From a virus (lineage: Duplodnaviria; Caudoviricetes): 54,408 nt of DNA. Each line of letters begins with the position of its first letter. Within the stretch, counting starts at the first letter, position 1. The DNA lies in the IMG/VR virus record IMGVR_UViG_3300021424_000044, positions 1 to 54,408 of that record; one strand, written 5' to 3'. Of the stretch, positions 28,985 through 54,097 are shown one piece after another. Made by a program: the position numbers and the translations under genes. The notes beneath the pieces were generated by a model. It made no database searches. It was not told where the DNA came from and worked only from the letters and a program-made list of their open reading frames with translations.

Positions 28985-31900
28985 ATGGAAGATATCAAAT
29001 TTAAGTCCAACTCTGGACAGTTCAATATTGACCAAGCACAAGGAATAGTGGAGTGCTTCGTCGCTGGGATAGGCAATAAGGACTCCGTCGGCGACATTGT
29101 CGTTTCTGGCGCGTTCGCAAAGAGCCTAGTCCGCAGAAAGCCAAGAGTTGTCTGGGGCCACAACTGGAATGACCCAATTGGCAAAGTCCTAGAAATTTAT
29201 GAAGTTCCGCCAAATGACCCACGGCTTCCACAAAAGATGAAACTTGCTGGCATCGGTGGACTATATGCCAAAGTGCAATTCAATCTGAATTCGGAAAAGG
29301 GTCGAGAAGCGTTTACCAATGTCGCGTTTTTTGGAGAAGAGCAAGAGTGGTCGATTGGCTACAAGACGCTTGATGCGATATATGACAATGGCAGACAGGC
29401 AAACATTCTGCGTGAAGTTGAGTTGTACGAACTGAGCCCTGTCCTTCACGGCGCAAATCAACTTACTGGAACAATCTCTGTAAAAACAGAGGAAGAAAAA
29501 AATCATATGATGCACATGGTGGGCGGCGGTTCAGCGGTTGCCGTCATAGAAAAGCCAAAAGGTCCAGTTGACCCATTTGCGCAAGGTGTTGCGCAGCCAG
29601 CAGACAGCGATAGAACCGCAGCGCTCGAAAGAGAACTTGCCACAAGAACTGGCGGCCCAGTGAAAATTATGAAAGCAAACGAAAGTTCGGTTGTTTTCAT
29701 GAAGCCAGGCAGGGGAGTTTTCCGTCTTGGTTATTACTTTGACGGCGAACAGTATATGTTTGGCAAACCCGAGAAAATGGGCGCGACGATGATGGTCGTC
29801 TCCCCAAGTTCTGGTCGCCCAACCTCAGGTCCAGGAATGCCAAGAATTCCAAATTTCCCTGCGGTTCAGGGCAAGCCATCTACATCAGGGCCAATCATTC
29901 CAGTTAAGTATGGGAATGATGCAGCAGCCACTGGGTTTTTTAATCTGGATGATGAAAAATCATTGACCGAACAACTGTCGGAGCAGCCAGATTTCGTTGA
30001 GCAACTTTCGGGGATTATCGGCTCTCTGCAGGGTTTGGTCAATCAACACCGCTCCGAAAAATCAGAGTTGATGATTCCATGTAAGCCACAGGACGCCTTT
30101 GAGACAAAACAAGCCCTTGACCCAGTGTTTGATTATCACAGAATTGAAACATACGTTACGGAAGATGGCATCGTAATCGCGTCGCCACTGAGTGGAGATG
30201 CTTACGAGGCGGTGGAAAATGCGACCAAATCACTCCTCGGAAGAATTGGCAGGAGTCTTGGTGGCGGGGGAAAAGTTAGGCGCGGCAGGGCCGCGCTAGC
30301 CAGAATCGAAGGGGTACTAGACCCCAGAAAACGTCGTGACTTTGATGGCGACGGACTCATCTTTGATGGCACATGGATGGAGCAACCAGACCCAAATCGC
30401 GCACAATCTGTCTATAGGCAAGTTTCGTTTCTTCGTTCTAGCGGCAAAAAGCCCAAGGAAGTCACTGATGCATTGACTGGGGACGAAGTTCCTCGTTTGG
30501 AAATTAATTTTACCAGAACAGAAAAAATAAAGATTCTTGAGGTTTTGGACAACGTAATCAGTGAAAATCAATTGACCGAAGACAATCCAATAACAAAGTT
30601 GAGAGATTCGATAAAGAATGCCAAGAAAGTTGGCGAACAACTTCAACCGCAACTTTTCGGACCAGACGGCGAAAGTTTGCTTGATGGCGCAAAAGCAGAA
30701 TTTGAAAAATTGCAACCAAGTTTTGAAAAGCATGGCGGCAAAAAACCTGGAACAAAGGGCAGAACGCCAACTGACATAATCAAAGATGTTTTGACCAATA
30801 AGCGTTATGAAAGAAGAAATATCGACAAGCGTGCCAAGGGCGGTCTTGGTGGCACCTCTGCAAGGCAGGGAACAGCGCAGGGCAGACGGACAAACATTGT
30901 TGGCTCCAGTAAGCCCCTTCCACGGCTCGGGGGTAGGCGCGACGGAAAGTTGAACGTAGACGATTTTATTGAAAAAGAATTTTTGCCATTTGATTGGTAC
31001 AAGATGTCTGGTGATGAAAAACTGAAATGGCTCAACAGCAAGCCAGATGGCGCTGGAAATGAAGGGACCAATGAGGAAGCGTTGATAGGTTTGCGGCCCA
31101 AACAAGAGGCATGGCGAAAAACGGTCGAGCAAATAACCAATGACGCGATTGAGCAGTCCCTTGAGGAAGAGGACCCTGCTGAAAATCTTAGGGAGCGCAG
31201 GCAAGCGGCGAGTGAGGACCGCGCGGAAAGAGCGGCGGCGCCACGACGCGTATGGGAACAGACCATAGAAAGAGAAGAAAAAGAAAAGGCCAAGGTCGAA
31301 GAAAAACGCCGCAAGATGCGAGAAGCGGCGGCGGCAAGAAAGGCAAAAGACGAAAAGCGCGAGCCTCGCGAATTCCAGTCTGACCCAGATAGACCAGACA
31401 CGATTGCACACAAGCGAACAGCGGAAAAAATAACTAGAGATTCGGACAAAATCAGAACATTTCTGGACGCGCAATCAGCAAAAGGAAGGGTTAATAAGAC
31501 TGTTGAGGATTTAATCAGCGATGGCCTTGATGATGTTGATGTGTTGATTGCTGACGAGGATGATGTTCCAACGCTTGAATCACTAAGTGAGGCACGAGAC
31601 AAAATTGAAGCGCTTATTGCGACACTCACCGACCCAGACTTGATTGAAAAAATCAACAAGCGAAGAAAGATAAATAAAGAAACTGGCAAAGAAGAAGATG
31701 AACTAGAAGTTGTCACAACCCTTAGCAATGCTGAACAACAGTTGATTCAAGGCTTGAAAACTGTTTCTGGCAGATTGTCCGAACACATCAGTGAATGGGA
31801 GGACAGAGAGTCAGACCTTGATGCCGAAAGGGACCTCATTGGCCGTGCTGGAAGGTCTGGTATCAGGGCGGAAGATTCTGGGTATGACTTTGATGAATAT

Positions 31901-32470
31901 GGTGGCGGAGATGATGGGGCTGATGAGGTAACCAACTTCAGTGTAAACAGGAATCCAAATTTGCTAAGAAGTGGCGGTTCTGGGGTCAGGCGAAGGGACT
32001 TGAACACAGTAGTGAATGAGGCTCGACAATTTCAAACAACACTGGCAAGAAGAAAAACCAGCGGGGGGTTGCGCTCTGGCGGCGGAGGAGACAAAACGCC
32101 AAGAACGGAAATAATTAAAGAGTCGACATGGTGGAGGGGTATCGATACGTCACTAAGGAGAGAAATAGATAAAGCAGAAACATCTGCCATAAAAGATGGT
32201 TTGACGCTTTTGCAACAAAAAATCTCTAAATATAAGGCTGGCGCATTTACGCCTGGCTCCAAGAGAACGAACGTAGGTTCAATCAAAATTACAGCCGATG
32301 AAGCAGACAAAATTCTTGACGCAGTTATGGCGGTAATTGATAGACAAATGACTGCTGGAAAAGGCGGAAGCGTAGGCAGCAGAGCAGAAATTTTTGCGGA
32401 ACTGCTTGAGGCTGTCTCGTCAGCAGCAATGTCAACGTTTATAGATAAAAGCGGTTCGCCCGCGGACTGA
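28985..32470 (+). CDS. HK97-type prohead protease (S78) fused to a ~950-aa extension
   Basis: GNKDSVGDIVVSGAF, VVWGHNW (His), WSIGY (Ser) and LYELSPVLHGAN motifs. The extension carries the DGDG cassette and 3 LRSxG motifs. Confidence 0.9.
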   Translation: MEDIKFKSNSGQFNIDQAQGIVECFVAGIGNKDSVGDIVVSGAFAKSLVRRKPRVVWGHNWNDPIGKVLEIYEVPPNDPRLPQKMKLAGIGGLYAKVQFNLNSEKGREAFTNVAFFGEEQEWSIGYKTLDAIYDNGRQANILREVELYELSPVLHGANQLTGTISVKTEEEKNHMMHMVGGGSAVAVIEKPKGPVDPFAQGVAQPADSDRTAALERELATRTGGPVKIMKANESSVVFMKPGRGVFRLGYYFDGEQYMFGKPEKMGATMMVVSPSSGRPTSGPGMPRIPNFPAVQGKPSTSGPIIPVKYGNDAAATGFFNLDDEKSLTEQLSEQPDFVEQLSGIIGSLQGLVNQHRSEKSELMIPCKPQDAFETKQALDPVFDYHRIETYVTEDGIVIASPLSGDAYEAVENATKSLLGRIGRSLGGGGKVRRGRAALARIEGVLDPRKRRDFDGDGLIFDGTWMEQPDPNRAQSVYRQVSFLRSSGKKPKEVTDALTGDEVPRLEINFTRTEKIKILEVLDNVISENQLTEDNPITKLRDSIKNAKKVGEQLQPQLFGPDGESLLDGAKAEFEKLQPSFEKHGGKKPGTKGRTPTDIIKDVLTNKRYERRNIDKRAKGGLGGTSARQGTAQGRRTNIVGSSKPLPRLGGRRDGKLNVDDFIEKEFLPFDWYKMSGDEKLKWLNSKPDGAGNEGTNEEALIGLRPKQEAWRKTVEQITNDAIEQSLEEEDPAENLRERRQAASEDRAERAAAPRRVWEQTIEREEKEKAKVEEKRRKMREAAAARKAKDEKREPREFQSDPDRPDTIAHKRTAEKITRDSDKIRTFLDAQSAKGRVNKTVEDLISDGLDDVDVLIADEDDVPTLESLSEARDKIEALIATLTDPDLIEKINKRRKINKETGKEEDELEVVTTLSNAEQQLIQGLKTVSGRLSEHISEWEDRESDLDAERDLIGRAGRSGIRAEDSGYDFDEYGGGDDGADEVTNFSVNRNPNLLRSGGSGVRRRDLNTVVNEARQFQTTLARRKTSGGLRSGGGGDKTPRTEIIKESTWWRGIDTSLRREIDKAETSAIKDGLTLLQQKISKYKAGAFTPGSKRTNVGSIKITADEADKILDAVMAVIDRQMTAGKGGSVGSRAEIFAELLEAVSSAAMSTFIDKSGSPAD

Positions 32471-32514
32471 CAAGTGATTTGTAATAGATTTCACCACCGA
32501 ATAAGTCTGTGAAG

Positions 32515-32520
32515 TATAAT
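32515..32520 (+). promoter_or_regulatory. -10 box TATAAT upstream of the 439-aa gene
   Basis: Consensus hexamer in an AT-rich intergenic gap, with an AAGGAG RBS before ATG 32604. Confidence 0.55.
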
Positions 32521-32603
32521 TTGTGAAAACGAATTTTAAGAAATACAACGCAAGACGGGTGCCTGTGGTATTGTCGTCTCGCAACACATAAGGAGCCATC
32601 ACA

Positions 32604-33923
32604 ATGGATTACGACAAGAACGCAGTGGTTAAGTTGGACACCGACGGCTCCGTTTTGAAGTGCGCCAAGGGTGCTGACGCAGAGGGCTGCGGCTACAGCA
32701 TGGGCGCCAAGGTTTGCGCAAAGTGCGGCGCCATGCCCGTTCAGATGAAGGCCATGCCGATGGATGACGACGAGGAAATGGACGACCAGGAAGAAATGGT
32801 TGATGCCGAAGACGAAGATGACGAAGACGCGGTCGAAGAGGATGCGGACGAGGATGACGGCGAGGAAGACGACATTGATGCCAAGACCATGATGCAGGAC
32901 GAGGACGAGGACGAAGACGAAGAGGAAGAGGAAGAGGAAGAGGAAGAGGAAGAGAGTTCCGAACTTGAGGAAATGAAATCTCGTCGTCTAAGAAACATGG
33001 GCTACAAAACAGCCGATGTTGGCGCTCGTGGTTACCTGTGCGCAATTGACCGTAAGGTTTACCCAGGTGGTCAGCCAGTTTGTGACGACTGCGTCGGCGG
33101 ATGCATGGCCGAAAAGGGTATGCCAGGTCTGCTTCATGTTGAAGGTATTGCGGAAGACATGTTTGACGGCAAGGTTTTGGACTCTGGCTATTCAGCAGAA
33201 GCCGACATGTTTGTCGTTGACGTTGAGGCCAAGGATGGTCGCGCCGTTGAGGTGTTCGTTGACGGAACCAGTGCAGAAGTATTGGGCTGGCACAAGTTGG
33301 ACGGAAGTGCGTTTGAGCAGAAGTCGCTTGTTGACGAGATGATGCTCATCGACTTCAACGACGCCGCCGAAATCGCAGTCAAGTCGATTGAGGGCAACGT
33401 TGTGGCTGTTGAGCCAGATGTGTTCGAAGGGTTTGACGCATACGCAGTTGAAATCGACGGCATTGACGGTAAGTCATATGACGTGTTCGTTTCTCTTGAT
33501 GGCGAAGTCCTTGGCTACGACAAGTACGAGGAAGAGGATGCACAAGACATCGAAGCAGAGGCTGCAGAAATTGCATTGAAGCGCGCCTTCACAGACGAAC
33601 AGCGAACAAGCATGGCCAAGGAGGGAACTGCCCTTCCAGATGGCTCTTATCCAATTGGCAACAAGGAGGACTTGTCGAACGCGATTCAGGCTTTTGGTCG
33701 CGCCAAGGATAAGTCTGCCGCCAAGCGCCACATCATCAAGCGCGCAAAGGCGCTGGGTGCTGAGGCAATGATTCCAGCAAACTGGGTTGCTGGGGCCAAA
33801 GCCGATACGGGCCAGTCCGTGGGGGCTGACGGAGAAGCAGTTGACTCGGAGTTCATGTCACAATTGCTTGAATTTGAGTTGCTCAATGCCGAGGTTGAAG
33901 AAAACCAAACCCCAGAATCGTAA
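32604..33923 (+). CDS. Acidic head-associated protein: Cys clusters, poly-D/E tract, two PepSY-like repeats, C-terminal DUF6582-like domain (439 aa)
   Basis: CAKG..C..CAKC and CAID..CDDCVGGC. FNDAAEIAVKSIEGNVVAVE...YAVEI...DGKSYDVFVSLDGEVL is PepSY-like. ALPDGSYPI.NKEDL.NAIQAFGRA...KRHIIKRAKALG. Confidence 0.7.
   Translation: MDYDKNAVVKLDTDGSVLKCAKGADAEGCGYSMGAKVCAKCGAMPVQMKAMPMDDDEEMDDQEEMVDAEDEDDEDAVEEDADEDDGEEDDIDAKTMMQDEDEDEDEEEEEEEEEEEESSELEEMKSRRLRNMGYKTADVGARGYLCAIDRKVYPGGQPVCDDCVGGCMAEKGMPGLLHVEGIAEDMFDGKVLDSGYSAEADMFVVDVEAKDGRAVEVFVDGTSAEVLGWHKLDGSAFEQKSLVDEMMLIDFNDAAEIAVKSIEGNVVAVEPDVFEGFDAYAVEIDGIDGKSYDVFVSLDGEVLGYDKYEEEDAQDIEAEAAEIALKRAFTDEQRTSMAKEGTALPDGSYPIGNKEDLSNAIQAFGRAKDKSAAKRHIIKRAKALGAEAMIPANWVAGAKADTGQSVGADGEAVDSEFMSQLLEFELLNAEVEENQTPES
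32896..32954 (+). repeat. GAGGAC/GAGGAA hexamer run encoding poly-Asp/Glu
   Basis: gaggacgaggacgaagacgaagaggaagaggaagaggaagaggaagaggaagag. Confidence 0.9.
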
Positions 33924-33949: not shown

Positions 33950-36900
33950 ATGCAGGAACGTAAAGTATTAATTGCGCGCGTCATAAAGAGCGCTCGGGTT
34001 TTGCCTACATCGAAAGATACGCCGCAAGAGCGCATATCGAAATTTGTAGAGGCACAGAAGCAGGTTGTCGCGTACCCGTTTTCGCCAGAACTTTCGGTGA
34101 AGGCACTCGGGCAAGCACTCAAAAACAACAAGGACCCTTCTGCCGACAACAAGGAAAAACGCAAAAAGGCAGAATCCAATTTCACTCGTATCGGTGTTGC
34201 TGTTTTTGACCCAGATGCGACACCCAAAAAGGGCCAATACTTTGAGATAAGACCTCGCAAAGTAAATCAAGACGGACAACTTGGCGATGTGCCGAATGTT
34301 GGTTGGCTTGACCCACGAAAGACGGTCAAACCAGAAGATTTGGTTAACCAGGGCAAGAAGTTTCTAGCGTCGAAAAAGGGACCATCTGTAAGAAAGGTTC
34401 CAGCCAAGAAAAACCCGCGCACTGGACAAATGGAAGTTAAGGCGCTGGGCAGAACAATCGGCAGGGCCGCTGGGAACATCGGGCAAGCAGCCGCAAGGGC
34501 GGCTGGGGTTCTCGTTGATGCTGACGGCAAGTTCAGATGCCCGCCAGGAGTTCCAGCGGCCAATCAATTTACGGATGAAGTTGGAAGCAACTGTTTTGAT
34601 TTTTCCCCATTGGTAGCCCGAGCGTTGGTGAAAATCGCTGAAAAGTTTGGACATCAAATGATGGAAAAACTTAGCAAAGTTAATAACGCAACCCCCTTTG
34701 AGCGGAATGACGATTATCAACTTGTCCTGCGTAGTAGTGGCGGAAGACTCCGTGGCACAGTCCTTGGTCCAGAGAAAGAAAGACTTCGCGGAACACTTCT
34801 TGGTCCTGATGGAAAACCAATACCGCCGACACCACCACCGCCGCCAGCAACACCAATTGAGCCTTTTGATTTGATTGAGCGCGAACTTGAGATAGCAGAA
34901 AGAGACCTTGCAAGAATTGCTGGTTCTGGAGAAATAATTGACCCAGACACCTATGAAGAAAAATTTGAAGAAGCGTTTCGCGCCGCATACCCAGAATTGA
35001 CTGACGAAGAAATCAAGTCGCTTGCCAAAATCGCATCAGAGCGTGAGCGCATGAGAGATAAATTACGCGCAGAGCAGAGAAGCGCACTGGACCTAATAAG
35101 GTCGCTTGGAATAGACGTTGACGAAAGTGACCCAGTGTCAGTTCAAAGAGGAATAGCGCTGGCGTTGTTGAAAATGAAAGAGATGGGCTGGGATATCGAC
35201 CTTGACTCATATTTTGGTGAAGGATTTTCCGAAAATCCAGAGCGAGCATTACTCGCATACAGGAACACCATCGCAAATATGGCTTTGGATGGGACGCTTG
35301 ATGCGGTAAGGCAGGGGATAATTCACGGGATGAGCCCAGCCGATTTAGAGGTACTGCAAAGAAAATACGGGTCAAAATTTGAAGAAATGTTGGTGCAGGG
35401 GATAGTTGATGGCTCCAACCCTTCTGAAATTTTCCCTGATGACGAAAAAGCACAACAGTTGCTTGCCATGGGTCAAAGGTCTCTCGCCAAGGCTCAACAA
35501 TTTGAGACTGGCACCCTTTTGCAATTGATAAATGCAAGGCAAGAGAACCCCGAACTTACGCAAGATATAAAAAGTATTGTTCATGTTGCTTACGACCCCA
35601 GTGACCCGTTTTTTGGGGGGATGAGTATTGACGAAAAGGGCAATTTGCAGTTTCAGATGAATCTCGGCGGAATGTTACTGCTACACCCAGCCGCGTCGTT
35701 GTCGGATTCGGATTCATTCCTGTATGAACCAACTGGGACCGCTGGAACAGAAATAGAAAAATTGAAAAGAATAGGCGAAGTTGTAAGCGCGGAAAATAGG
35801 CACCGCCTGCTTGATTCATACATGGGGGGCCTAACGACATTTGCAGAACAAATATCTAAAATCCGCAACGGCGAAGGCTACATGACGCAGAGTCTCAACG
35901 ATTCATTTGGTGGTATGGCGCTTGGCCAATTCGTTGCTTTTCATGAACTGACGCATGGGCGCCAACTTTCCATGGCAAGGGAGATAATCAAGTCAAGAAA
36001 CCCTGGAATGTCAAACAGTGAGGCTATGGCACTGTTGGGTCAAATGATTTTTCAGGGCAGAAAATTCACGGATTCAAGAGGTGTTGACTTCGATTACGGA
36101 ACAATGATTACCGACCCGCAAGTGATGCTCACCGCATGTGCGAACATGAGGGAAATAGTTCATCACTTAATCGACAATAAAGTCGGAGGTACATACGGTC
36201 CCTCGCATTACTATTCCACGTTTTACTTAAACGAGGTCATGAGCAAAGCCAATAATTATTCTGACGTGAGCGACCTAAGAGACAGTCTCGTTATGCGGAA
36301 GCGAGAATTGGAGGCCGCAGGAAAAAACGAAGAAGACGCAGAATACAAGGGTCTGATTATGGCTATAGGGCGTATTGACGGTGTCCTAGCAAGTGCCACC
36401 GATGACGAAGACGCCCTATTAAAGATGCGCAGACAAGTAAACGAAATGGCTCAAGTTACATATTTGGAAATGCAGGCAGACCTTTCGGCTGCAGTGAAAT
36501 TCGGGCTCATAAAAGAAACTCCAGAAATAAAGGCATTCCTGGCTCCGCTATCGCTTGGCCAAGACCTCCCAGAAATAAAAAAGAATATTGTGCCGCCGCC
36601 GCCGCCAGCACCGCCTGGCCCACCACCAACGAGGCGAGATAAGTTGAGGGAATTGGCAGGGATAGGTAAACGAGCAAGAAAAATTTCGATGATGGACTTG
36701 CGAGACATGGTTGAGGGAATCGCTGACATAGATGAAGCCACTGATAAAACTGGTGGTCTTTCTGCTCACGACAGGACTCTCATGTCGGCAGGTATGGCGT
36801 CAGCCGCAAAATTTGATAGTAGGGGCTCTGCATCCAGATGGGGCAAACAAGTCAGAGACGCTGTGTTGCGCGACATGACAGAAAAACATCGTGAGGTGTT

Positions 36901-44130: not shown

Positions 44131-47100
44131 GACAATACGCGGTACTAAAGAATGTGGTTCGCGACGTTAATTTTGGCGTCGTCGTAAAGTCCGATGGAAA
44201 CCTTAAGTTTTTTGGTTGGTCCCAAAAAGCAGTGGAGTGGGCAAACTGGGCAAATTCCAACAATGCCGACCTAAGTCAACTTCCGCCGAATATCTCTGTG
44301 GGTGAATTCAGGGGTATGTCCGACGAGACAATGAAGAGCATTATTCTGAATTCCCAAGATGCCGTCGCTGCTGGTTCGGCAACAATCAGCACCAAGACCT
44401 TGGCCTTTGATTTGGGGCGCGAGCACAACCCAAATGCGTCAAAATTCCCCTCTTTTATTGATTCGCCAATTTCTGGAGACTGGGTCTCAAAGCATAAGTC
44501 AATAAATTTCAAGGCGCATAACTTCAGAAAAGAAGTTGTACAGAATGAACTTGCCCTAAGGGTCCGCATTCACGAATTGGCTTTCAATAACGAGACTAAA
44601 CAATTTGTTTCAAAGCCCAATAAAATTACCGCAACCCACACTCGTTCAGAAATTCAAAAAAAGATGTCGCGCGGTGCGGAGCGAAAATTCGGTAAGCAAA
44701 TTGTTGAATACACGAACAAAGAAATCCTGAAAAACTACGTTGCCCCAACAATCAAGAGAGATACGCTGGGGAAATCCACCAAGGAAATTCTTGATACCTA
44801 TACAAAGGCAAGGCTCGGACGAGCGATTGGACGCGCTGCTGGTAACGCGATTCGCGGAGCAGCGTCAAGCAGGACAGCAAGAGGTGTTGCACGAAGATTT
44901 ATTTCTGGTACTCTCGACCCACGCAAGAGAAGAGACCATGACGGAGACGGGTTGATTTTTGACGGTACATGGCGGGAAATGCCAGACCCCAATAGATTTG
45001 TTTCTGCGCCGCGTGCCAGCGAAACCTCAACGGGCATGTTGATGGAGGGTACTCCTGGTCTTCGACGCCGCGGCGGAATGAACCTTCCAGGTGGTGGCGG
45101 TGTTGGAATTAGAAGTACTGACCCAGAAGAAAATAGGAGAGTAGAAGACAGCCTAAGAGCCCAAGATGAACTGCGACAACAATTTACGGCAGAAGTAGAA
45201 AAAATAGTCAATACACTAAGGGATGCTGGTCTTACTATCGAAAAACCAAAGCGTGGAAAGCGCGAACGAAGACTTTCTGACGGCACTTCCCTAAGAAGTT
45301 CTGGTGCAACCGCGAACGAGCCGCCACGTGCCGCCGCTGCGGTTCAGATGGCGTTTGACACGCGAAATAGTCGCAAAGCATCAAAGATGACGTATGACCC
45401 GCAGACGAATTCTGTTGAAGTCACATATAAAGACGGAAGAATGAAAAGATTTGACAATGTCCCATACGATGAAGCAAGACGCGCTGGGGCCGATGACGCA
45501 ATAGACAGACTCATTACAGACATGGAAACTGGCCGCATAGGCAAGGAATCCAAAGAGCCAATTATGGGCATTCGTTCATCTGGCAGAAGACCCAAACCAG
45601 ACGTTGACATGACAGATATGACGCCAGAAGAAAGAGAAGCGAATAGACCTAGTAGCGTTTCAGAAGATGAGTATCGTCGCCGAATTCGACGTGATGTCGA
45701 CCGAAGTTTGCGCAGGGCCGACGAAGAAGGTTTGCGTTCGTCTGGGAAATATACACGCGGGAACATGTCGCGCCTCACCCCTCAAAGCCAAAGTCGCGTT
45801 GACAACGCAAAAGAAATGCTTGATTCTGGAAGAGTTGACAACGTCAGGCAACTGACGACCCAGGTCGAAGGTCTTGATTTACGTATTTCCAGAAATCAAA
45901 ATTATCTTGATTCGCTAAGGGACACGCTTCGCAGGTTGGGCCCTGGTGACAAGCGCCGCCCAGATACAGAAAAAGATTTTGAACGCGCCGAGCAAGAACT
46001 TGGCGTTGATATGGCGATTCGCGACCTAACTCAGCAAAGACTCAAGAAAATCGACAGGGGCCCAAAGCCAGGTGGTTTGCGCTCTAGTGGTAATCGAAAT
46101 ACTGCAGAAAAACTCCCTGACGAAGGCGGAGAACCTGGTCGCTATGACGACATGCCGAGCGTTGAGGACGCTGTTAAAAAACTTACCTCTGGCGACAGAA
46201 TGTCAGCAGACGAACTCGAATATCTGGAGGAGGTGACGGACAGAATCCTCGATGACCCAGACACACCAGAAAATATTCGGGATTCAATGTTGGATTTGAA
46301 AAATCAAATTGCTGCACGAAGAAAGAATGGCGGCAATACGCTTCGCTCCAGTGGTGGAGGGGGAAGACGACGCGCAACCACGCCAACCCCAGTGGACGTT
46401 GAAGCATATCTCAAAGACTGGTTGGAAAATCGAAATCGCAATCGGCCATATATGCCTGGACAAGATACTGGCCAAAAAACACCTGTCGATGATATCCCAG
46501 ACCTGTCCGACGAAGCGATTCGTGACGAAATCGACAGAATTGAAAATCGTCCTCGCGTATATGACGGCAACGTTACTGCTGCTCGCATGGACGGCGAGCG
46601 CAAGGCGGCGCTGGAAAGAGAATTGCAAAGAAGACGGAGAGGCGGAGGCAGAAGAAAGCCAACTCAAAACACTAAGCGCCCGTTCTCGAGCGAACCAAAA
46701 CCAGAGACCAACAGACCACTTTCGACGGGCAGTAACCAGCGCGTTAGTAACTGGTTGAATTCACCCGAAGGTAGAAGGAGTGTTCAGACCCTTAGGTCAT
46801 CTGGGGCAGGCCGTGAGGAATTTGGGTCGACCGCAACTGGTGGTTTCAAATACCCCAATGCGTCGCAAAGAAAGCGAATATTCAACAGCAAGGAAGACGT
46901 CGACGATTTCATACAGGACCTCAAAGACGATTACGAGGCTCGCCGAAGACGATTAGAACAAGAACTTGGCTTTGAAGATGGCTACTACATGGACGACGAA
47001 GAACTTATTGAAAAGTTCATGGACGACTACGGAATGTCGAGAGGCGAAGCGCGCCAAGAAATGCGCAAATACAGACGTAATTACGACCTTCTAGAAAAAG

Positions 47101-50100
47101 AACAGGAAATTCACGAGCGTCGTCTCGATGAACTTGATGCAGAGAAATCAAGGCTTCCACACCAGCAGGAAATTGACGACCCGATTGAACTCGACACAAA
47201 TGGTTTCCCCAAAAATCCAGAACAGACGGAACGTTTTAACGAACTGATGGAGGAGGGGAATCCAGTCTTCAAGGCCCGCAAGAGGCCAACACGAAAACCC
47301 AAGGAAACAGAAGACAAACGAGACCCAGAAGTTGAAGACCTCATTTCCAACATTATGTCGTCCACCGCTGGTCCAAGCGAAGGGTCAAAGCGTTCACTCC
47401 GCTCTTCTGGCGCTGGCCCAGAAACCCAGGATAGACCAGAAATAACATCAATTACGAAATTGATTGAGAATGACTACGACAGCATGCTGCAGGGTGGGGC
47501 CGACATGGATTCTGGCATGAGAGAAGTCGCTAGAACGGTTGGACTTAACGAAAAACAAACTGAAAAGTTGTCCAAGATTGCTTACACCTTGGACAGACAA
47601 AGGGACGAACTTCCGCAAACCGCAAGTGACCAAAAGAGGCTCGTTGACGGAATCATGGAGGAAAGATTTGGCAATCAACCACTGAATGACGACCAAAAAG
47701 CGTCAGTGCGGGAGGCTCTGTCGGCATTTATTGCCTACGCCGCGAAGAACGCAAAAGCAGAAGCCAACGGAAAAGCGAAGCCACGCCGCGACAGCGAGCC
47801 AGATGACATTCAGTCGATGATTAGAAGATTGCAGAGCGGGCAGCAACTGAGTGATGACGAACTCGACATGCTTGATGAACTGAAAAACATCGTCAGAGGG
47901 AAACGGAATGTAACCGAAGACGAACTTGATGCAATGGCTGACCTGGAAAAGGAAATACAAAGGGCACGACGCGCACCACGTCGCCAATTCGAACCAGCAC
48001 AGCAGGCTCTCTTTTCACGAGGAAACGTAAGAACGGATGTGCCGCTAAGTTCCCGTAGGTCTCTTGCAAGAACCGAGCGTGCCGCTAAACCACGAGGGAC
48101 AACGCTCCGTAGCGCTGGTGGAGATAAAACAAAAACACCAAGAACACCAGCACCAAAGAGTGGCGCTCCGCGCGGTGTTGGTGCTGGTCCTGGTGGCAAG
48201 GCTGGCCACGCAAGAATGACAAGAACGTATGGTCGTGACAAGAAGGGCAGTGACGGAAAGGTATTTGACTCCCTCACACCAGAACAGAAGGATGCCGTTA
48301 AGAAGACTCTTGTCGAAGAGGTCAAGCCAGCATTGGATAAGAAACTAAAGGGTTTCTTCAGTAAGTATTGGAAAGCCAGAAGCGAAAGAGGCTCTAAGAA
48401 ACAAAGCCTTTTGGCTGTCCGTAGAAGAGCAAAGGGTGACGCTCGCGGAAGATACGACAAAGTCGCAGAAGACACCCCACTTGAGTCGGCAGATATTTAC
48501 GAGATGCTTTATCGACTTGACGGACAAGTGTCCGAAGGTCTACTTGAAAAGTTTGAAGTGTCCGATAAGGACTCGCGAGAATTAAAACTCACCGAAGATG
48601 GTGAGGCCAAGGTGAGCGCGGCCAAGAATGGATACACAGTTCAGCAAAGAGCCTTGGATGACGCTCAGACAATCATGAACATGATTGAAGACGGGGACTT
48701 CTCCGCTCTTGAGCACTTGCATCCTGCCACCAAGAAGAAGATTGCTGACGTAATCAAAAAGAACGGCGGCGAGGTTCCAAAAGGTTGGATTGATTCAGAG
48801 TCATCAGTCGCTGGTTGGGCTGGCGGAGAAGGACGAACAAAGGCCCCAGACGCAATCGACCTAGAGAAAGAACGTGGAATAGGGAAAAAGAAAAAAGAAA
48901 AGCGACTCTCCCTGTTCCAAAGACTGCGCCGCGTCGACCCAGAAAGAGAACGAAAAGTTGAATTGCGCGCTGCAAGAAGACAGGGCCGACTCCGCGAGGG
49001 TATTGAACTTGACCCTGACCTACAGTTGAAGCGACGTATTCTTCGTGGCCGCGCCATGAAGAGAACTTTTATGTCGAGGTTTAGGAAGAACCGCGACCCA
49101 GAAACGCTTGCAACAGACATGAGGGAAAGGCGAGAAGAGGTTGCAGTTCTTAAAACAAATGCTACGGATGGAAAGGTTGAGGTTACTGACGGTTATGTCG
49201 ACCTTTTGCACGCTCTTGACCAAGGCTTGATTGGGATTAATGAAAAGAAGAGAAAGGGAGCAAGCGAAGAAGAAGTTGAAAGCGAACATAAAGCGTTGTT
49301 GCGCAGACTGTGGGAAAACTCGGGCTTTTCAGAAACGCCAATCCAACTGAAAGAAGATGAGGTTAAGTTACTCCTTGATGCTGGTTGGCAACCCATCATG
49401 CGTGGCACTGGCCACGAAAAAGTCAATAGCGAAACCTATGTTGAGCAATTCATCACCTCGGAAGGACGATTTATCCCAGGTCAGGGTGGCTCCGCGTTCG
49501 GAATCGGCGAATACTTCTCGTACCCAGGCGAATGGGGTAGTTACCATGGCGCGAATCCAACCGACAGACACACGCTCGTGGCACTCCTGCCCCCAACATC
49601 AACAATTGTCAAGCAGAGTGAAATTGCACGTGAACATGCAAATCTCGGCGCCATCACAACAAAAATTTCGGACGCATTCAAAATAATCGGTGGTCGAGAT
49701 GCGACCAAAGCCATGGAGCCAGAAGAACTGGTCGCCGAAATAGACAAAGCGGTCCCAGACCTGTCATCCGACGCATCGCGAACTGGTCAGATAATTAAGC
49801 AATTACGCGACAGGCTTGAGGCATTGTCAAAACTGCCCAAAACAAACGACGAAGAACGCGGTGCAGTTCAAGCACAAAAGGAAAAGATTTTGAATTCGCT
49901 TGACTATCTACAGCGTTTTTCCAAGCAACGCTCGCCAGAAATGATTGCACCGCTTATCGGTGTTGACGCCATTGACACAAACGAGAATGACTCCTCCATT
50001 AAGGACCCAATTCTCCTTCACAACAGAACGTCTGTTGCGGTTCTTCAGGTACCGACAACCTACGACCAGGGCTTGGCATTGGTTTCTGGCCCCAATGGCG

Positions 50101-50993
50101 AACGAAGGCCCAAGGCGTGGCTTAAGTGGAAGCGGAAGAGTGTTGAAACACCAGAAAGAGAAGCACCAAGAAGAAGGTCGCCACGTCGCGCAAGACGAGC
50201 ACAGCCGCCAGCACCCCAGCCAGCAGCAACCCCAAATCCGCCGACGCCAACCCCAAGTACGCCAACGCCATCCCCAAGTACACCAACGCCACCCACTCCG
50301 TCACCAGACGGCAAGGGCGCAAAAGCACCAGTTGATGTTTCGTCATGGACTTCAAGCAGACCACAGTCGACTGGCTCAAATCCAGCCACACTGCTTACTG
50401 CGCCAGACGGAACCCAGTACTACACCAAACTGCCAAAAGGAACCCCAGACGACAAGGACAGAATGGAAACAGAAGCCCTTGCATCAGAACTTTATAAGTT
50501 GGCTGGGATTCAAAGCGCCGATGTTCAAATGGGGACCCGCAATGGTCAGCCAGTGACCATTTCAAGAATGGTGCAATCGCGTATGCCAAATTCGCAGGGT
50601 GACCAAGACGAAGCACTTAAGGGTTTTGTTGTGGATGCGTGGCTCGCAAACTGGGACGCACCGCTTAACGACAATATCAAGATTGATAGCAATGGCAACG
50701 CAGTGAGACTCGATGTTGGCGGCTCACTTGATTTCAGGGCGCAAGGCGCACGAAAAGGTAAGGCATGGGGCAACACGGTTGGTGAAATTGAATCAATGAA
50801 AAAAGGTGGAACATACGATTTCAAAAAGATTACGGATGCTGCAATCAAGCAGCAAGCCAAAGCACTGGGTAACGTAACTGACACAGATATTAGGGCAACA
50901 GTTTCCAGAATTGTCTCTGACCCAGCAAGGGCAAAGGCACTTGCTGATACGCTTATTGCACGACGAGATGACATAGTCAAGAGGTATGCATAG
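44127..50993 (+). CDS. Giant modular protein (2288 aa): DGDG cassette, KTSC-like, helical repeats, ART-like, C-terminal HipA/PI3K-like kinase
   Basis: MTYDPQTNSVEVTYKDG...FDNVP is KTSC-like. IMRG...GSAFGIGEYFS...LHNRTSV is ART-like. GSNP...YYTK...EALASELY...DAWLANWD...N...RLDVGGSL is kinase-like. Eight [L/I]RS[S/A]G motifs. Confidence 0.75.
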   Translation: MRQYAVLKNVVRDVNFGVVVKSDGNLKFFGWSQKAVEWANWANSNNADLSQLPPNISVGEFRGMSDETMKSIILNSQDAVAAGSATISTKTLAFDLGREHNPNASKFPSFIDSPISGDWVSKHKSINFKAHNFRKEVVQNELALRVRIHELAFNNETKQFVSKPNKITATHTRSEIQKKMSRGAERKFGKQIVEYTNKEILKNYVAPTIKRDTLGKSTKEILDTYTKARLGRAIGRAAGNAIRGAASSRTARGVARRFISGTLDPRKRRDHDGDGLIFDGTWREMPDPNRFVSAPRASETSTGMLMEGTPGLRRRGGMNLPGGGGVGIRSTDPEENRRVEDSLRAQDELRQQFTAEVEKIVNTLRDAGLTIEKPKRGKRERRLSDGTSLRSSGATANEPPRAAAAVQMAFDTRNSRKASKMTYDPQTNSVEVTYKDGRMKRFDNVPYDEARRAGADDAIDRLITDMETGRIGKESKEPIMGIRSSGRRPKPDVDMTDMTPEEREANRPSSVSEDEYRRRIRRDVDRSLRRADEEGLRSSGKYTRGNMSRLTPQSQSRVDNAKEMLDSGRVDNVRQLTTQVEGLDLRISRNQNYLDSLRDTLRRLGPGDKRRPDTEKDFERAEQELGVDMAIRDLTQQRLKKIDRGPKPGGLRSSGNRNTAEKLPDEGGEPGRYDDMPSVEDAVKKLTSGDRMSADELEYLEEVTDRILDDPDTPENIRDSMLDLKNQIAARRKNGGNTLRSSGGGGRRRATTPTPVDVEAYLKDWLENRNRNRPYMPGQDTGQKTPVDDIPDLSDEAIRDEIDRIENRPRVYDGNVTAARMDGERKAALERELQRRRRGGGRRKPTQNTKRPFSSEPKPETNRPLSTGSNQRVSNWLNSPEGRRSVQTLRSSGAGREEFGSTATGGFKYPNASQRKRIFNSKEDVDDFIQDLKDDYEARRRRLEQELGFEDGYYMDDEELIEKFMDDYGMSRGEARQEMRKYRRNYDLLEKEQEIHERRLDELDAEKSRLPHQQEIDDPIELDTNGFPKNPEQTERFNELMEEGNPVFKARKRPTRKPKETEDKRDPEVEDLISNIMSSTAGPSEGSKRSLRSSGAGPETQDRPEITSITKLIENDYDSMLQGGADMDSGMREVARTVGLNEKQTEKLSKIAYTLDRQRDELPQTASDQKRLVDGIMEERFGNQPLNDDQKASVREALSAFIAYAAKNAKAEANGKAKPRRDSEPDDIQSMIRRLQSGQQLSDDELDMLDELKNIVRGKRNVTEDELDAMADLEKEIQRARRAPRRQFEPAQQALFSRGNVRTDVPLSSRRSLARTERAAKPRGTTLRSAGGDKTKTPRTPAPKSGAPRGVGAGPGGKAGHARMTRTYGRDKKGSDGKVFDSLTPEQKDAVKKTLVEEVKPALDKKLKGFFSKYWKARSERGSKKQSLLAVRRRAKGDARGRYDKVAEDTPLESADIYEMLYRLDGQVSEGLLEKFEVSDKDSRELKLTEDGEAKVSAAKNGYTVQQRALDDAQTIMNMIEDGDFSALEHLHPATKKKIADVIKKNGGEVPKGWIDSESSVAGWAGGEGRTKAPDAIDLEKERGIGKKKKEKRLSLFQRLRRVDPERERKVELRAARRQGRLREGIELDPDLQLKRRILRGRAMKRTFMSRFRKNRDPETLATDMRERREEVAVLKTNATDGKVEVTDGYVDLLHALDQGLIGINEKKRKGASEEEVESEHKALLRRLWENSGFSETPIQLKEDEVKLLLDAGWQPIMRGTGHEKVNSETYVEQFITSEGRFIPGQGGSAFGIGEYFSYPGEWGSYHGANPTDRHTLVALLPPTSTIVKQSEIAREHANLGAITTKISDAFKIIGGRDATKAMEPEELVAEIDKAVPDLSSDASRTGQIIKQLRDRLEALSKLPKTNDEERGAVQAQKEKILNSLDYLQRFSKQRSPEMIAPLIGVDAIDTNENDSSIKDPILLHNRTSVAVLQVPTTYDQGLALVSGPNGERRPKAWLKWKRKSVETPEREAPRRRSPRRARRAQPPAPQPAATPNPPTPTPSTPTPSPSTPTPPTPSPDGKGAKAPVDVSSWTSSRPQSTGSNPATLLTAPDGTQYYTKLPKGTPDDKDRMETEALASELYKLAGIQSADVQMGTRNGQPVTISRMVQSRMPNSQGDQDEALKGFVVDAWLANWDAPLNDNIKIDSNGNAVRLDVGGSLDFRAQGARKGKAWGNTVGEIESMKKGGTYDFKKITDAAIKQQAKALGNVTDTDIRATVSRIVSDPARAKALADTLIARRDDIVKRYA
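50200..50310 (+). repeat. Pro/Thr-rich linker repeat (PTPTPSTPTPSPSTPTPP)
   Basis: Imperfect repeats of acgcca(a/t)ccccaagtac separating the ART-like and kinase-like domains. Confidence 0.8.
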
Positions 50994-50995
50994 TC

Positions 50996-51379: not shown

Positions 51380-51388
51380 GTTTGGCTC

Positions 51389-54097
51389 ATGGCCGATGAG
51401 CAGTCCGATACAAATTCTCGTGTTTTTGCCATTCGCGCATCACAGTGGATTGGTTGTTCTGGAGCGCACAAACACGAGGGTAAGTGGATGCCGTGCGAAA
51501 CGCATGAAGAACTTCTAAAAATTTCTGGTGAGGCAGAGCCAAAAAAGAAAACTGCTTTTGAAGATTTGTACAAAAGATACAACACGCGAAAAGCAAAAGG
51601 GAAAAAGAAAAAGCGCGGTTGGGAAAATTTAAGAGAATTAAGACCGCTTGGCGGGTTTGCAACACTTGAGGGCGGCGGCATAGTTTCTGCCCCAATAAAT
51701 TCAACAATTTACTCTGGTGGCGTTAAGTCATACATTCCTGGCGTAACTCCAAGAGATAATGACCCAGACGTTTTCACAGACATCGAATCGGCGCGCAAAA
51801 GAAGCAGGATGCTGGGGTGCATTGGGGTGAGAAGAATGCCTTCTGCAAGCGGAAGAACAGTTTGGATGCCGTGTACAACGAATACCGATTATGCGCGCCT
51901 TGCTGGAACGACATTTCTTGGCAGAAGAGGTCAGCAAGAAGCACAGCGCAGAATGATTAGAACGATTGTCAGAAACGAATTCCGTAACGAAGAGCGAAAC
52001 AGAAGAATTAGAAAGAAGTCACTGTTCGAGGAGTTGGTCCAAGACAAGAGTCTACTTGGAAGAGCCATAGGCAGAATAAATTCACCTGGTTCTTTGTCAA
52101 GAAGACTAAGAAGAGGAATGTCTGCTGGCGGCAGAATTGAAGGAGTACTTGACCCCCGCGTGAGAAGAGACCTTGATGGCGACGGTCTCATTTTTGATGG
52201 CACGTGGAGAGAAATGCCAGACCCAACCAGGGCGACAACCGCAGCGTCGAGAGTGCTACGAAGTTCTGGTGATGCGACACCACCAGAAATGAAATGGTGG
52301 AAATCTAAAACAGACAACACCTGGCTGACGCCAAACAGAATTGGCAAAGGGGGGAAACTCAAAGCCTCCGAAATACTCAACTTTGACAGAGTGCGCTTGC
52401 GAAAAGACAGAGACGAACAAGCCGAAGTTCTCGGTGTATCACGAGAAGTCATAGACGCCATGCACCAGCCAGGCGCATCATTGGACCCAGAGGATGCAGA
52501 CAAACTCTCCCTAAGAGCACTTGAATTGCACCCAGCGCTCATTTGGGGCGCATCATGGCTAGAGCCAGATAGGAAAAAGAAAACCAAAATACGAAGAACC
52601 AAAAGTTCACGCGGCAAGTACGGCTCGCTTGACGGAAGACAGGTTCGCGCCAAAAAACGTGGCGCTGGGGAATTGGACGACAGGGACAAGCGCGTTCTTG
52701 AAATGCGCGCAAACGGCGCAACAATGCAGGAAATAGCGGATGAACTCAAAGTAACAAAACAAAGGGCTGACCAAATTTACAAGAGGGCGGTTAAAAGAAA
52801 TACGCAAGCAGACATCAGTAGAGATGGCAGCATCCTTCGCAGTCAGGGGACAAATCTTGCGCGCGGTGACGGGATGATTCGCCGAGACGAACGTGGAAAG
52901 CCAATTCGTCAGGCAGACAGAAGAAAAGAAACCCTTGAGCAGACAATAGCCAAACTCAAAGAAATGGGTTTTTCTGATGAAGAGATAAATCTGCTTATGA
53001 CTGGTGACCGAAACACACCTGTCGATACGACCACAAGAGATGTTGATACCTCAGAGGCAAGAAGGCTTCGGTCTTCTGGTCGAGTCAATTCGCCAGTTGG
53101 TCTAAGGTCTGGCGGCTTCAGTATTAGTCAGATGGAAATAACGCCGCCCAAAGAGTGGCCAGAATCGTCAAAAACACACATGCTCAACTGGGCAAATGGA
53201 AGACCATCTTTCAATATCCCATACTCAATAAGCCAAAAACACAAGCGTGATGGAAGTCTTTCCGACAGAGAATGGAAGACGCTACTTAGGTTCTACAAGC
53301 AATGGGGCCCAGAAAATACATCTGGGAGAAGATTGCGTTCTGGTGGCGGTGGAAACATCACTGATACATACACCAATGTTGGTGCAAGAAGAATGGCACA
53401 AATCATTCTTGACAGAGTAAAGCCGCAGTCCAGAAATAAGCCAGTAGGTAAAAGACGGCACTTCCACATAATTGGTCCAGGCGGAATGGGAAAGACCACG
53501 CTGCGCGAGTTTCTAACGAAAGAAGGGGTAATACCTGGCGACGACGAAGCGGCGCTTGTTGACCCCGATTTCATCAAAATGGGAATTGTTGGGTATGAGG
53601 GTGGAAAAGGTTCAGAACTTGTTCATAGGGAGTCGGCACATTCGGCAACACATACGGTGAATGACGCGCGAAAAGAGGGCATGGACATAATCACTGAAGG
53701 AACTGGATACAGACTGCACGACTACAAAACGACAAGTGACAATACCTATGAGAAGGTGTTTCACATTCCGTACCTGCCATACGATGAAGCAGAAAGGCGA
53801 GTCCGCGTAAGAAATGCACAAGGAAAAAGACAATTGCCAGTTAGTCAAATAAGGGCCAAGGGTGCTGGCCTGTATGGATTCATAACCGACCACCTGAGAA
53901 GAGGCGAAGCGCAAACAATGTATATCTGGGACATGGACGTTCCAGAAGGGGCTGCGCCAAGGGTCATCGCAAAAATAGAAGATGGTGTTTTTCAGGCTTT
54001 TGACGAACCAAAATTCAAGGCTTGGGCCGTGCAGCACGGTGGTAGGGGTGGGGATTCCGATATCTCCTGGTTCAGGAGAAACTTCCCTTCTAAATAA
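51389..54097 (+). CDS. Modular protein (902 aa): two DUF3721-like repeats, DGDG cassette, two HTH-like modules, C-terminal zeta-toxin-like P-loop kinase
   Basis: IGCSGAH...WMPC and LGCIG...WMPC. QAEVLGVSREVI and ATMQEIADELKVTKQRADQI. IIGPGGMGKTT...VDPDFIK...VHRES...DIITEGTG. Five LRSxG motifs. Confidence 0.75.
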   Translation: MADEQSDTNSRVFAIRASQWIGCSGAHKHEGKWMPCETHEELLKISGEAEPKKKTAFEDLYKRYNTRKAKGKKKKRGWENLRELRPLGGFATLEGGGIVSAPINSTIYSGGVKSYIPGVTPRDNDPDVFTDIESARKRSRMLGCIGVRRMPSASGRTVWMPCTTNTDYARLAGTTFLGRRGQQEAQRRMIRTIVRNEFRNEERNRRIRKKSLFEELVQDKSLLGRAIGRINSPGSLSRRLRRGMSAGGRIEGVLDPRVRRDLDGDGLIFDGTWREMPDPTRATTAASRVLRSSGDATPPEMKWWKSKTDNTWLTPNRIGKGGKLKASEILNFDRVRLRKDRDEQAEVLGVSREVIDAMHQPGASLDPEDADKLSLRALELHPALIWGASWLEPDRKKKTKIRRTKSSRGKYGSLDGRQVRAKKRGAGELDDRDKRVLEMRANGATMQEIADELKVTKQRADQIYKRAVKRNTQADISRDGSILRSQGTNLARGDGMIRRDERGKPIRQADRRKETLEQTIAKLKEMGFSDEEINLLMTGDRNTPVDTTTRDVDTSEARRLRSSGRVNSPVGLRSGGFSISQMEITPPKEWPESSKTHMLNWANGRPSFNIPYSISQKHKRDGSLSDREWKTLLRFYKQWGPENTSGRRLRSGGGGNITDTYTNVGARRMAQIILDRVKPQSRNKPVGKRRHFHIIGPGGMGKTTLREFLTKEGVIPGDDEAALVDPDFIKMGIVGYEGGKGSELVHRESAHSATHTVNDARKEGMDIITEGTGYRLHDYKTTSDNTYEKVFHIPYLPYDEAERRVRVRNAQGKRQLPVSQIRAKGAGLYGFITDHLRRGEAQTMYIWDMDVPEGAAPRVIAKIEDGVFQAFDEPKFKAWAVQHGGRGGDSDISWFRRNFPSK

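Follow-up and report, generated by a model that had tools for sequence, protein, structure and literature searches.

Lineage-specific peptide motifs in the giant head-cluster proteins of uncultured myoviruses: candidate processing sites of putative virion-delivered polyproteins

Introduction

We describe a short peptide motif, [LI]RS[SGAQ]G, that is found 20 times in four large open reading frames (ORFs A to D) of IMGVR_UViG_3300021424_000044, a linear record of 54,408 bases from an uncultured tailed phage. By the window we mean this record at its full length (CheckV completeness estimate 36%), and we also call it G000. Because the capsid gene starts only at 54206, all four motif-bearing ORFs lie between the prohead protease domain and the capsid gene. 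In related phages the equivalent ORFs carry a motif that is characteristic of the lineage and that switches in concert at homologous sites. We propose that the motif is probably the recognition site of one phage-encoded processing protease, most likely the S78 protease encoded at the start of ORF A, and that the four ORFs would be polyproteins delivered with the virion. Cleavage of some kind at the motif is very likely.

The excess of the motif, its concerted switching between lineages, its location in linkers, the pattern of insertions around it, and an address module that precedes it are what we observe, and on these observations the proposal is built. The address module and the occurrence of the lineage motif in the tape-measure protein are new here, and in the open-access literature searched we found no description of such a system for this clade or for phages of the S78 type. 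The motif-bearing ORFs and their main features, all on the plus strand, are:

28961-32470 (likely ATG at 28985), plus: ORF A, 1169 amino acids (aa); S78 domain, middle region, address module, motif, helical scaffold-like region, two motifs, conserved C-terminal domain
29039-29494, plus: S78 (HK97 gp4-type) prohead protease domain, A aa 27-178; PF04586, E = 4.2e-10, 40.5 bits against a cut-off of 21
30212-30430, plus: address module of A (LLGRIGR...GVLDPRKRRDFDGDGLIFDGTWMEQPDPNR), paralogous to the modules of C and D, 63% over 77 aa
30431-30445, plus: motif LRSSG, A aa 491
31964-31978, plus: motif LRSGG, A aa 1002
32069-32083, plus: motif LRSGG, A aa 1037, immediately N-terminal to the conserved C-terminal domain
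33950-40963, plus: ORF B, 2337 aa; conserved N-terminal fragment, partial address module 34427-34594, motifs at 34727, 37547, 39245 and 39872
35942-35956, plus: HExxH motif (HELTH), B aa 665
40478-40492, plus: HExxH motif (HEFGH), B aa 2177; weak Peptidase_Mx match, E = 0.027
44127-50993, plus: ORF C, 2288 aa; conserved N-terminal fragment, address module 44799-45026, eight motifs, 959-aa conserved C-terminal fragment
45291, 45570, 45732, 46077, 46341, 46791, 47397 and 48105, plus: motifs of C
45369-45473, plus: KTSC-like stretch between motifs 45291 and 45570; PF13619, E = 2.6e-4, 21.1 bits, below the cut-off of 25
51389-54097, plus: ORF D, 902 aa; DUF3721 repeats, address module 52040-52255, motifs at 52256, 52835, 53066, 53102 and 53333
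53372-54094, plus: zeta-toxin-like P-loop kinase module, D aa 662-902; Pfam Zeta_toxin, 24.8 bits against 22.3; predicted local distance difference test (pLDDT) about 88-94

Excess of the motif in the window

An earlier note on this DNA had listed 20 positions for the motif, and all 20 are reproduced, with 3 copies in ORF A, 4 in B, 8 in C and 5 in D. The number of copies expected from amino acid composition is 0.019 for A, 0.042 for B, 0.039 for C and 0.022 for D, a total of about 0.12, and the observed count is therefore in excess by about 170-fold. The comparison with a shuffled null gives the same answer: in 2000 shuffles of each whole ORF and 2000 local 60-aa shuffles per ORF, there are never more than 2 copies. 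Each RS[SGAQT]G in ORFs A to D is preceded by L or I. Outside of them, the portal, the acidic 439-aa ORF, three small ORFs and the 690-aa ORF have 0 copies, and a six-frame scan of the window reports one single extra copy, at 11536 on the minus strand, in the 1618-aa ORF of the tape-measure protein. The near-variants that the earlier note mentioned are also there: IRRSG at aa 1898 and IRGSG at aa 1957 of B, and GIRST at aa 328 of C.

Could a count like this result from composition, from a DNA repeat, or from chance? R, S and G are abundant in the linkers where the motif is found, which is what makes the question worth asking. But the count and the shuffles just given answer it for composition, and the DNA does so for a repeat: as had been noticed from some of the copies, the codons vary, and all 20 copies differ from one another as 15-mers, drawing on both codon families of Ser and both of Arg, with CTN, TTG or ATT in the first position, while the 30-nucleotide flanks on either side have a mean identity of 27.5%, which is the random level. 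Thus the selection is on the peptide and not on a DNA repeat. Moreover, the motifs of other lineages, introduced below, are nearly absent (0-2 copies in the same interval). This explanation is already refuted.

Each lineage has its own motif

A search of IMG/VR gave 178 portal-related stretches, of which the best 80 were kept, and the portal-to-capsid interval was taken from five of the records, G001 to G005. The gene order is common to all six records: portal, S78 fusion (1,122-4,578 aa), acidic protein, giant ORF B, two small ORFs, a protein of about 690 aa, giant ORF C, a small ORF, giant ORF D (877-6,466 aa), and capsid. The distance between the beginning of the protease ORF and the end of the last giant ORF is 25-27 kilobases (kb) for G000 to G002, and it rises to 42 kb for G003 and to about 60-61 kb for both G004 and G005; ORFs A to D of the window sum to 6,696 aa. 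Single ORFs of 6,466, 5,244, 4,578 and 3,750 aa are found in G004 and G005, records of 109 and 117 kb that are estimated to be 73-79% complete.

The dominant motif of each record, and the number of copies of it that fixed regular expressions find in the protease-to-capsid interval, are:

G000 and G001: [ST]LRS[SG]G; 20 copies in G000 (17, plus 3 in A) and 17 in G001 (14 plus 3)
G002: GL[AR]S[SRT]T; 12 copies
G003: G[MLF]RS[RS]; 42 copies
G004: (G)DSGAM; 21 copies
G005: [DE]x[ES]AGM[SA]; 24 copies

The motifs of foreign lineages appear 0-2 times per interval, and 0-1 times outside the interval, in the six records. The earlier note had expected the same motif, next to swapped modules, in homologous loci. 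The swapped modules are there, but the motif itself depends on the lineage, and of the six records it is in G000 and G001 that the LRSSG type dominates.

We can follow individual sites through closer relatives, and observe how they change together. The five sites of ORF D, in 48 homologs, have the forms LRS[SQT]G, GL[AS]S[ST]T, RGARSxS, L[AR]SGR or GLRS.., with a single type per protein. ORF A has two conserved sites, at which a set of 12 close relatives shows FLRSSG, SLRSGG, RGLRSEG, RLASGR, RGARSES, GLRSET, GLSSDT and GLASST, among others, again in concert. The shared sites of B and C switch likewise (for instance TLRSSGGGG, TLRSSGSS, GLSSSTSS), and both gain and loss of sites are seen between close relatives. 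A motif that belongs to each lineage and that switches in concert is the signature of a single trans-acting reader. In addition, the motif classes, when aligned on their Ser, all fit [G/S/A]-[L/M/A/G]-[R/A/S/M]-S, and since all of them share this core, a conserved enzyme could read it, with the other positions being tuned by something else.

That reader could belong to the host, with the lineage motifs tracking different hosts. The motif changes fast between phages with close structural proteins, and a change of host could suffice for that with the phage protease unchanged. However, LRSSG, DSGAM and EAGM[SA] would require very different host enzymes, and the phage genomes themselves hold two or more candidate proteases. 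Neither is there a prophage relative that would point to hosts: a portal query against 185,579 species genomes gave none, only one weak and irrelevant match of 28% identity. We regard a host protease as highly improbable.

Sites lie in linkers, and modules are inserted at them

The motif had been placed by the earlier note in linkers at module boundaries. For ORF D we can look at this with a structure model (38 sequences, mean pLDDT 66.9), which has confident modules at aa 302-394, 428-473 (a helix-turn-helix, HTH), 497-549, 575-643 and 662-902. All five D sites are in segments with pLDDT below 50 (282-301, 474-496, 550-574 and 644-661); 232 of the 902 residues are below that value. In the model, then, the sites fall in low-confidence linkers between folded modules. 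The tendency is not specific to D, since the 15 residues on each side of the sites are less hydrophobic and contain more disorder-promoting residues than the background in each of the six genomes (permutation p <= 0.004). One part of the earlier description does not generalize: the linkers had been called basic, and a net basic charge holds in G000 and G001 but not in the other four genomes.

Among the 48 homologs of D, there are 11 insertions of at least 40 aa, and all 11 are at motif sites, 8 of them at s483 and 3 at s572. Seven are flanked on both sides by the motif of the protein itself, as in NTLRSEG...[122 aa]...NTLRSSG or RGLSSST...[394 aa]...RGLSSST; the remaining four either have the motif on one side or are expansions of the linker. 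Some modules are also met in other ORFs elsewhere: the G000 fragments D_f3, D_f5 and A_f4 match the protease ORF of G003, which is a different ORF. The suggestion that the motif is a plug-in linker, which lets new domains be added, gains from these insertions. Taken together, the sequences strongly support a reading of the giant ORFs as putative polyproteins with plug-in linkers.

An address module precedes the sites

A stretch of about 60 aa is common to ORFs A, C and D (LGRxIGR...GVLDPR.RRD.DGDGLIFDGTW.E.PDP.R), with a partial copy in B. We call it the address module; its consensus is K[AS]LG..IG...DP..RRD.D.D.L.F[DE]G....PDP. A homologous module is present in all six lineages, in G004 and G005 with the form MNP.TARDADLDRLVLEG....GRG.PDPTPFG. 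Each giant ORF has one such module near its N-terminus, another follows the S78 domain, and the first copy of the motif always comes later in the chain. An extra ORF of 3,365 aa, found elsewhere in G002, has the address module together with four copies of the G002 motif.

A profile of the module searched against 1.84 billion proteins reports 140 cluster representatives. We left out 30 representatives with several stretches, as probable unrelated Asp-rich repeats, and used the 105 with a single stretch. These are large proteins, with a median of 1,820 aa, 43 of them of at least 2,000 aa, and the longest of 6,391 aa. In the 35 that have a recurrent 4-mer (at least 5 copies), 259 of the 261 copies come after the module, compared to 231.7 expected, and the first copy follows the module in 33 of the 35. 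The recurrent 4-mers include EAGM, SGSM, TGRM, GMRS, LSSG, STRS, GVSG and GADL. We infer that the address module is a loading tag that recruits the chain into the procapsid.

A smaller element, K[AS]LG, is also over-represented, with 7 copies against 0.75 expected in G000 and 7 against 1.1 in G005. In the window it is found at the N-terminus of the portal (26910-26945), at the C-terminus of the acidic protein (33747, KRAKALG..IP), in B at 34100 and 34439, and in C at 50859. It is also found at the start of address modules and in the tape-measure protein, 12 residues upstream of LRSGG. Its places at the portal N-terminus, at the C-terminus of the acidic protein and at the start of address modules are conserved. 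K[AS]LG may be a docking element.

A proposed mechanism and the case for the S78 protease

In the mechanism that we propose, each giant chain would have a conserved N-terminal domain and an address module that recruits it into the procapsid, and downstream of the address module the different modules would be strung on disordered linkers, all of them bearing the site. The S78 protease at the N-terminus of ORF A would read the core that the sites share (a small residue, then L, M or A, then any residue, and Ser). Cutting at the 20 sites would produce 24 pieces, including the HTH, the zeta-like kinase, two HExxH modules and the KTSC-like module as well as several charged peptides, and the pieces would be delivered to the host along with the DNA. 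The site would then be an evolvable code, each lineage having a version that is uniform across its sites, and new modules would join at the sites, each bringing a fresh copy of the site with it.

How good is the case for the S78 protease as the enzyme? Membership in the family is clear: PF04586 is above its curated cut-off, the PHROG match to head maturation protease has an E-value of 3e-26, the domain has 29% identity to HK97 gp4 with the elements WGH-N, WS-IGY and E-LS conserved, and the gene is between the portal and an HK97-fold capsid in 6 of 6 records, with 25-61 kb intervening. The H and S columns of HK97 gp4, which we take to be its catalytic residues, are matched by the His of WGHN and the Ser of EWSIGY; these two are invariant in the aligned relatives, and the Glu column is also kept. 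The helical, scaffold-like region of ORF A is flanked by motif sites, as self-processing would predict. All in all, we would give the S78 protease an even chance at best of being the cutting enzyme.

Several observations weigh against the proposal, and it is important to collect them in one place. The S78 domain of G000 (LRSSG) and that of the relative L010 (RGARS) have about 5 conservative differences in about 160 aa, none of them class-specific, and a domain so close to invariant is hard to reconcile with S78 alone setting the lineage-specific positions of the motif. The capsid protein's N-terminal domain has no lineage motif, though the capsid is the canonical substrate of S78 proteases, while the tape-measure protein assembles outside of the head and yet carries the lineage motif in G000, G001 and G002, and a near-variant in G004. 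One C-type giant ORF of G004 (61985-68107, 2,040 aa) has the address module and 0 copies of DSGAM. Many of the fragments of ORF C are charged and poorly conserved, with neither a homolog beyond the closest relative nor a family match. For these the name effector, which the earlier note used, is a tentative label. The model of ORF A (16 sequences) has a mean pLDDT of 54 with 601 of 1161 residues below 50, the S78 domain included; it is too poor, and its 3 sites cannot be judged structurally. Cultured phages are all distant: by portal identity the nearest is Brevibacterium phage Cantare, at 40%, and Cantare is without giant ORFs. And finally, cleavage, the identity of the enzyme, packaging and ejection are things that we infer.

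Three attempts to find a partner or a control for the switch were rejected. Class-specific S78 residues as the basis of the switch: an alignment of relatives has none. The capsid as a control substrate: there is no motif at the junction between the delta domain and the mature protein, and a guess that placed the cut between TR and SIG was dropped, given that alignment to HK97 gp5 indicates a different place, which is not conserved. The capsid as a co-evolving partner: it is 96% identical between G001 (LRSSG) and G002 (GLASST). Comparing a same-class pair with a class-switch pair, the divergence of the portal, S78, s2, p690 and acidic proteins shows no outlier either.

The tape-measure protein and a possible second protease

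The tape-measure protein deserves a closer look, as it is the only other place in the window where the motif appears:

8789-13645, minus: tape-measure protein, 1618 aa, with one LRSGG at 11536-11522 in a Gly/Pro-rich stretch

The motif that it carries follows the lineage: LRSGG in G000, both LRSSG and LRSGG in G001, GLASST in G002, and the near-variant NSGAM, twice, in G004. By eye, its C-terminus (SxHxxGxAxD...HxH) resembles a cell-wall peptidase of the LAS/M15 type.

With the invariance of S78, the motif-free capsid and the motif-bearing tape-measure protein, cutting by the prohead protease inside the head is just one version among two that are live. Cutting by a protease that is borne in the cargo, or by some other phage protease, is a tentative alternative. 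In its specific form, a metalloprotease carried in the cargo would make the cut, either the zincin-like HE[FML]GH[FL][FL]D module or one of the MPTase type, and it would act by self-processing, within the capsid or once it has been ejected into the host. The chains would go through the tail intact, as would the tape-measure protein, and the cell would be where they are cut, as has been modelled for polyvalent proteins. HExxH modules are indeed found in all six lineages, as HE[FML]GH[FL][FL]D in G000, G001, G002, G004 and G005 and as variant HExxH candidates in G003. G003, G004 and G005 have a separate HExxH ORF of 915-956 aa, with an address module in those of G004 and G005. A bona fide MPTase-PolyVal domain (PF18818) ends the D-type ORF of G003 (48673-49053, E = 3.5e-46), and G002 has a match with E = 0.02. 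A processing role for MPTase is predicted in the passages of Iyer et al. 2017 (PMC5512222) that bear on it. The tape-measure protein, which is ejected and is never inside the prohead, has the lineage motif, and S78 is too conserved to account for the differences between classes. In G003, a stretch before MPTase-PolyVal looks by eye like ArdC-N, and would be a classical polyvalent module of the anti-restriction type.

On the other side, the HExxH modules of the window are under every Pfam cut-off (the Peptidase_Mx match of ORF B is the best that they have to offer), and PF18818 has no match in G000, G001 or G004. Between G000 and G001, which have the same motif, the zincin-like fragment shows only 34% identity, and its fast divergence is therefore not tied to the motif. 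The sites beside the scaffold part of the protease ORF also fit prohead maturation more simply. We consider the metalloprotease unlikely. An equally unlikely but more far-reaching statement of it is that, once in the host cell, the injected chains are cut, along with the tape-measure protein, by a fast-evolving cargo protease and not by S78, with a two-part code made of a universal address and a site that each lineage rewrites at all of its 20-50 positions simultaneously. If that were true, a DNA phage would be using at entry the polyprotein strategy of RNA viruses, and the rewriting of the code would guard its chains from cutting, or from a failure of cutting, by the enzyme of a co-infecting relative.

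Does the motif have to be cut at all? It could be an uncleaved short linear motif, used for docking in the capsid interior, for modification (for example of the conserved Ser), or as a signal for passage through the portal and tail. Disordered linkers, many copies per chain and co-variation with the lineage fit binding or modification too, the Ser is common to most classes, and the proteins that share the motif (the cargo and the tape-measure protein) are those expected to exit via the tail. However, the capsid, with its near identity across the LRSSG and GLASST classes, is not a co-evolving partner, and the residue after Met in DSGAM and EAGM can be S, A, R, T or G, which leaves no universal Ser to be modified. 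Modules bracketed by the motif, and sites flanking the scaffold region, match what is predicted of polyprotein cleavage. We find an uncleaved motif improbable.

Comparison with known systems

The proposed processing by S78 has parallels in several known systems, and departs from each of them. Picornavirus polyproteins with their 3C sites, and the processing of core proteins in adenovirus and African swine fever virus, all have many units in one frame, and a viral protease that reads a short consensus in the linkers. With the clade described here there is no homology, the protease fold is another one, and the polyproteins of a tailed phage with double-stranded DNA would be cargo of the virion, and not proteins of replication or of the core. 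The cargo-loading peptides of encapsulins are short, are made of Gly, Leu, Ser and basic residues, and go with a shell of the HK97 fold. In contrast, the clade motifs are internal, occur in multiple copies and are also found in the tape-measure protein, and they do not co-vary with the shell, as the capsid comparison across two motif classes indicates.

The relation to HK97 is closer. The order portal, protease, capsid is the same, the S78 His and Ser columns are conserved, and the capsid homologs, which are full length (435-477 aa) in the five relatives, have 32-36% identity to HK97 gp5 over their whole length, with a long helical N-terminal domain. In HK97 it is the C-terminal part of the protease that brings it into the shell, and the address module that follows the S78 domain is in the matching place. 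The differences are that giant ORFs, 25-61 kb of them, separate the protease gene from the capsid gene, and that the protease is fused to a scaffold-like region or to cargo (reaching 3,658-4,578 aa in G003 to G005).

The closest functional parallel is with the large phages. The cleavage motif of T4 is L/I-x-E and that of phiKZ is S/A/G-x-E. T4 gp21, phiKZ gp175 and SPN3US gp245 are alike in that one phage protease uses a short motif to cut many head proteins, including the protease, scaffold-like propeptides and ejected proteins. The protease of G000, however, is of the HK97 gp4/S78 kind, and none of gp21 type was found with Pfam or PHROG. The clade motifs lack the terminal Glu of the L/I-x-E, S/A/G-x-E and A-x-E motifs, and vary between close relatives. 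Its chains have 900-6,500 aa with up to about 25 sites each and would be cut between modules, whereas in the large phages one propeptide is trimmed; a 60-aa address module would take the place of a short targeting peptide, and the tape-measure protein shares the motif. For SPN3US gp245, the part of PMC10052503 that deals with cleavage gives 14 sites in 9 substrates, propeptides that may have more than one site, and N-terminal propeptides thought to aid targeting.

Polyvalent proteins are described, in the passages of Iyer et al. 2017 (PMC5512222) that concern them, as very large multidomain proteins, encoded in blocks of late or virion genes, that are proposed to be delivered together with the DNA and processed into units. 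ORF D is similar in that it combines DUF3721, a sigma-r4 HTH and a zeta-like kinase within the head module, the window has KTSC-like and HExxH modules as well, and the relative G003 has the hallmark MPTase-PolyVal. As for differences, the window ORFs have no match to an LPD or MPTase family above cut-off (LPD23 comes up only with E = 0.1), and those same passages predict self-processing by MPTase and mention no cleavage motif, address module or lineage code.

What would follow

Should the motif prove to be a cut site, sequence would tell us what cargo the virions of the clade contain, as an address module and then the modules between sites, with hundreds of unknown protein modules in chains of up to 6,466 aa. 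We would also have a natural system in which a protease site and about 20-50 substrates per genome change together, and where the co-evolution of enzyme and substrate could be tested by swapping proteases and linkers between close relatives. Processing in the head or at ejection guided by a motif would extend from proteases of the T4 type to a phage of the HK97 type, and the idea of polyvalent proteins would gain a concrete processing signal. Loading proteins of choice into a phage head would take, at the minimum, an address module and a cleavable linker. An uncultured clade of myoviruses of about 150 kb would be devoting about one quarter to two fifths of its genome to virion-delivered polyproteins, the two-fifths share being an estimate from record lengths and CheckV completeness.

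Modules within the giant ORFs

When the G000 ORFs are divided in silico at all 20 sites, the fragments number 24 and have lengths of 12-959 aa. In every ORF the first of them is kept in all lineages, and the later ones are variable. Almost no matches came from searching B, C and the small ORFs against Pfam and PHROGs, or the fragments against Pfam, and sequence searches of the PDB with the 690-aa protein, fragment 5 of B and the S78 domain gave no usable match.

The domain labels given earlier from the letters alone are of uneven quality. The HTH of ORF D is a solid Sigma70_r4 match (E = 7.8e-8), and the zeta-like kinase is solid too: besides passing its Pfam cut-off, the kinase module finds 3q8x, 1gvn, 2p5t and 4z8q with Foldseek (E-values from 5.6e-6 to 1.6e-4, template modelling score on the target 0.58-0.63), and thus resembles the epsilon/zeta, PezT and AvrRxo1 kinases. 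KTSC is a weak match only, under its cut-off. For the two modules that had been called zincins, the HExxH motifs are present, and family support comes down to the one Peptidase_Mx match of E = 0.027. A DUF3626-like domain has no match at E <= 1.

Neighbouring genes

Other genes of the window are:

14943-16421, minus: tail sheath, within a set of myovirus tail and packaging genes on this strand that also includes a baseplate wedge-like gene
25350-26717, minus: large terminase
26886-28898, plus: portal; PHROG portal families, E = 7e-62; 0 motif copies
32604-33923, plus: acidic 439-aa protein; CxxC pairs, poly-Glu run, conserved C-terminus; motif-free and universal in the clade
41396-42073, plus: Cys/His-rich 225-aa protein; motif-free and universal in the clade
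42058-44130, plus: 690-aa protein; motif-free and universal in the clade
54206-54408, plus: N-terminus of the HK97-type major capsid protein, 67 codons, cut by the end of the record; full-length homologs in relatives

The ORF at 32604-33923 does not encode the capsid protein: it has no capsid match in the Pfam and PHROG searches, and the true capsid gene is at 54206. The acidic protein that it encodes contains two CxxC pairs and about 17 consecutive Glu, with a match to PepSY that is weak (E = 0.002), and its C-terminal half is kept in the six lineages. It could serve to offset basic linkers. For the 690-aa protein, ESM Atlas gives a lead to MuF/ADP-ribosyl-toxin clusters that is below threshold (score <0.9). 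A pattern RCPxG...FTD....C is common to the N-terminal fragment of B (34500-34590, aa ~185-215) and to the 690-aa ORF (42430-42530, aa ~125-160).

Two more observations concern the structural genes. The portal has a low-complexity insert, GMPGMPGMPPGAPGMPP, at 28140-28200 (aa ~420-440), which recurs in relatives. And a PAPS-reductase-like gene (19711-20853, minus strand; PHROG 2302, E = 8.5e-78) is found among the structural genes.

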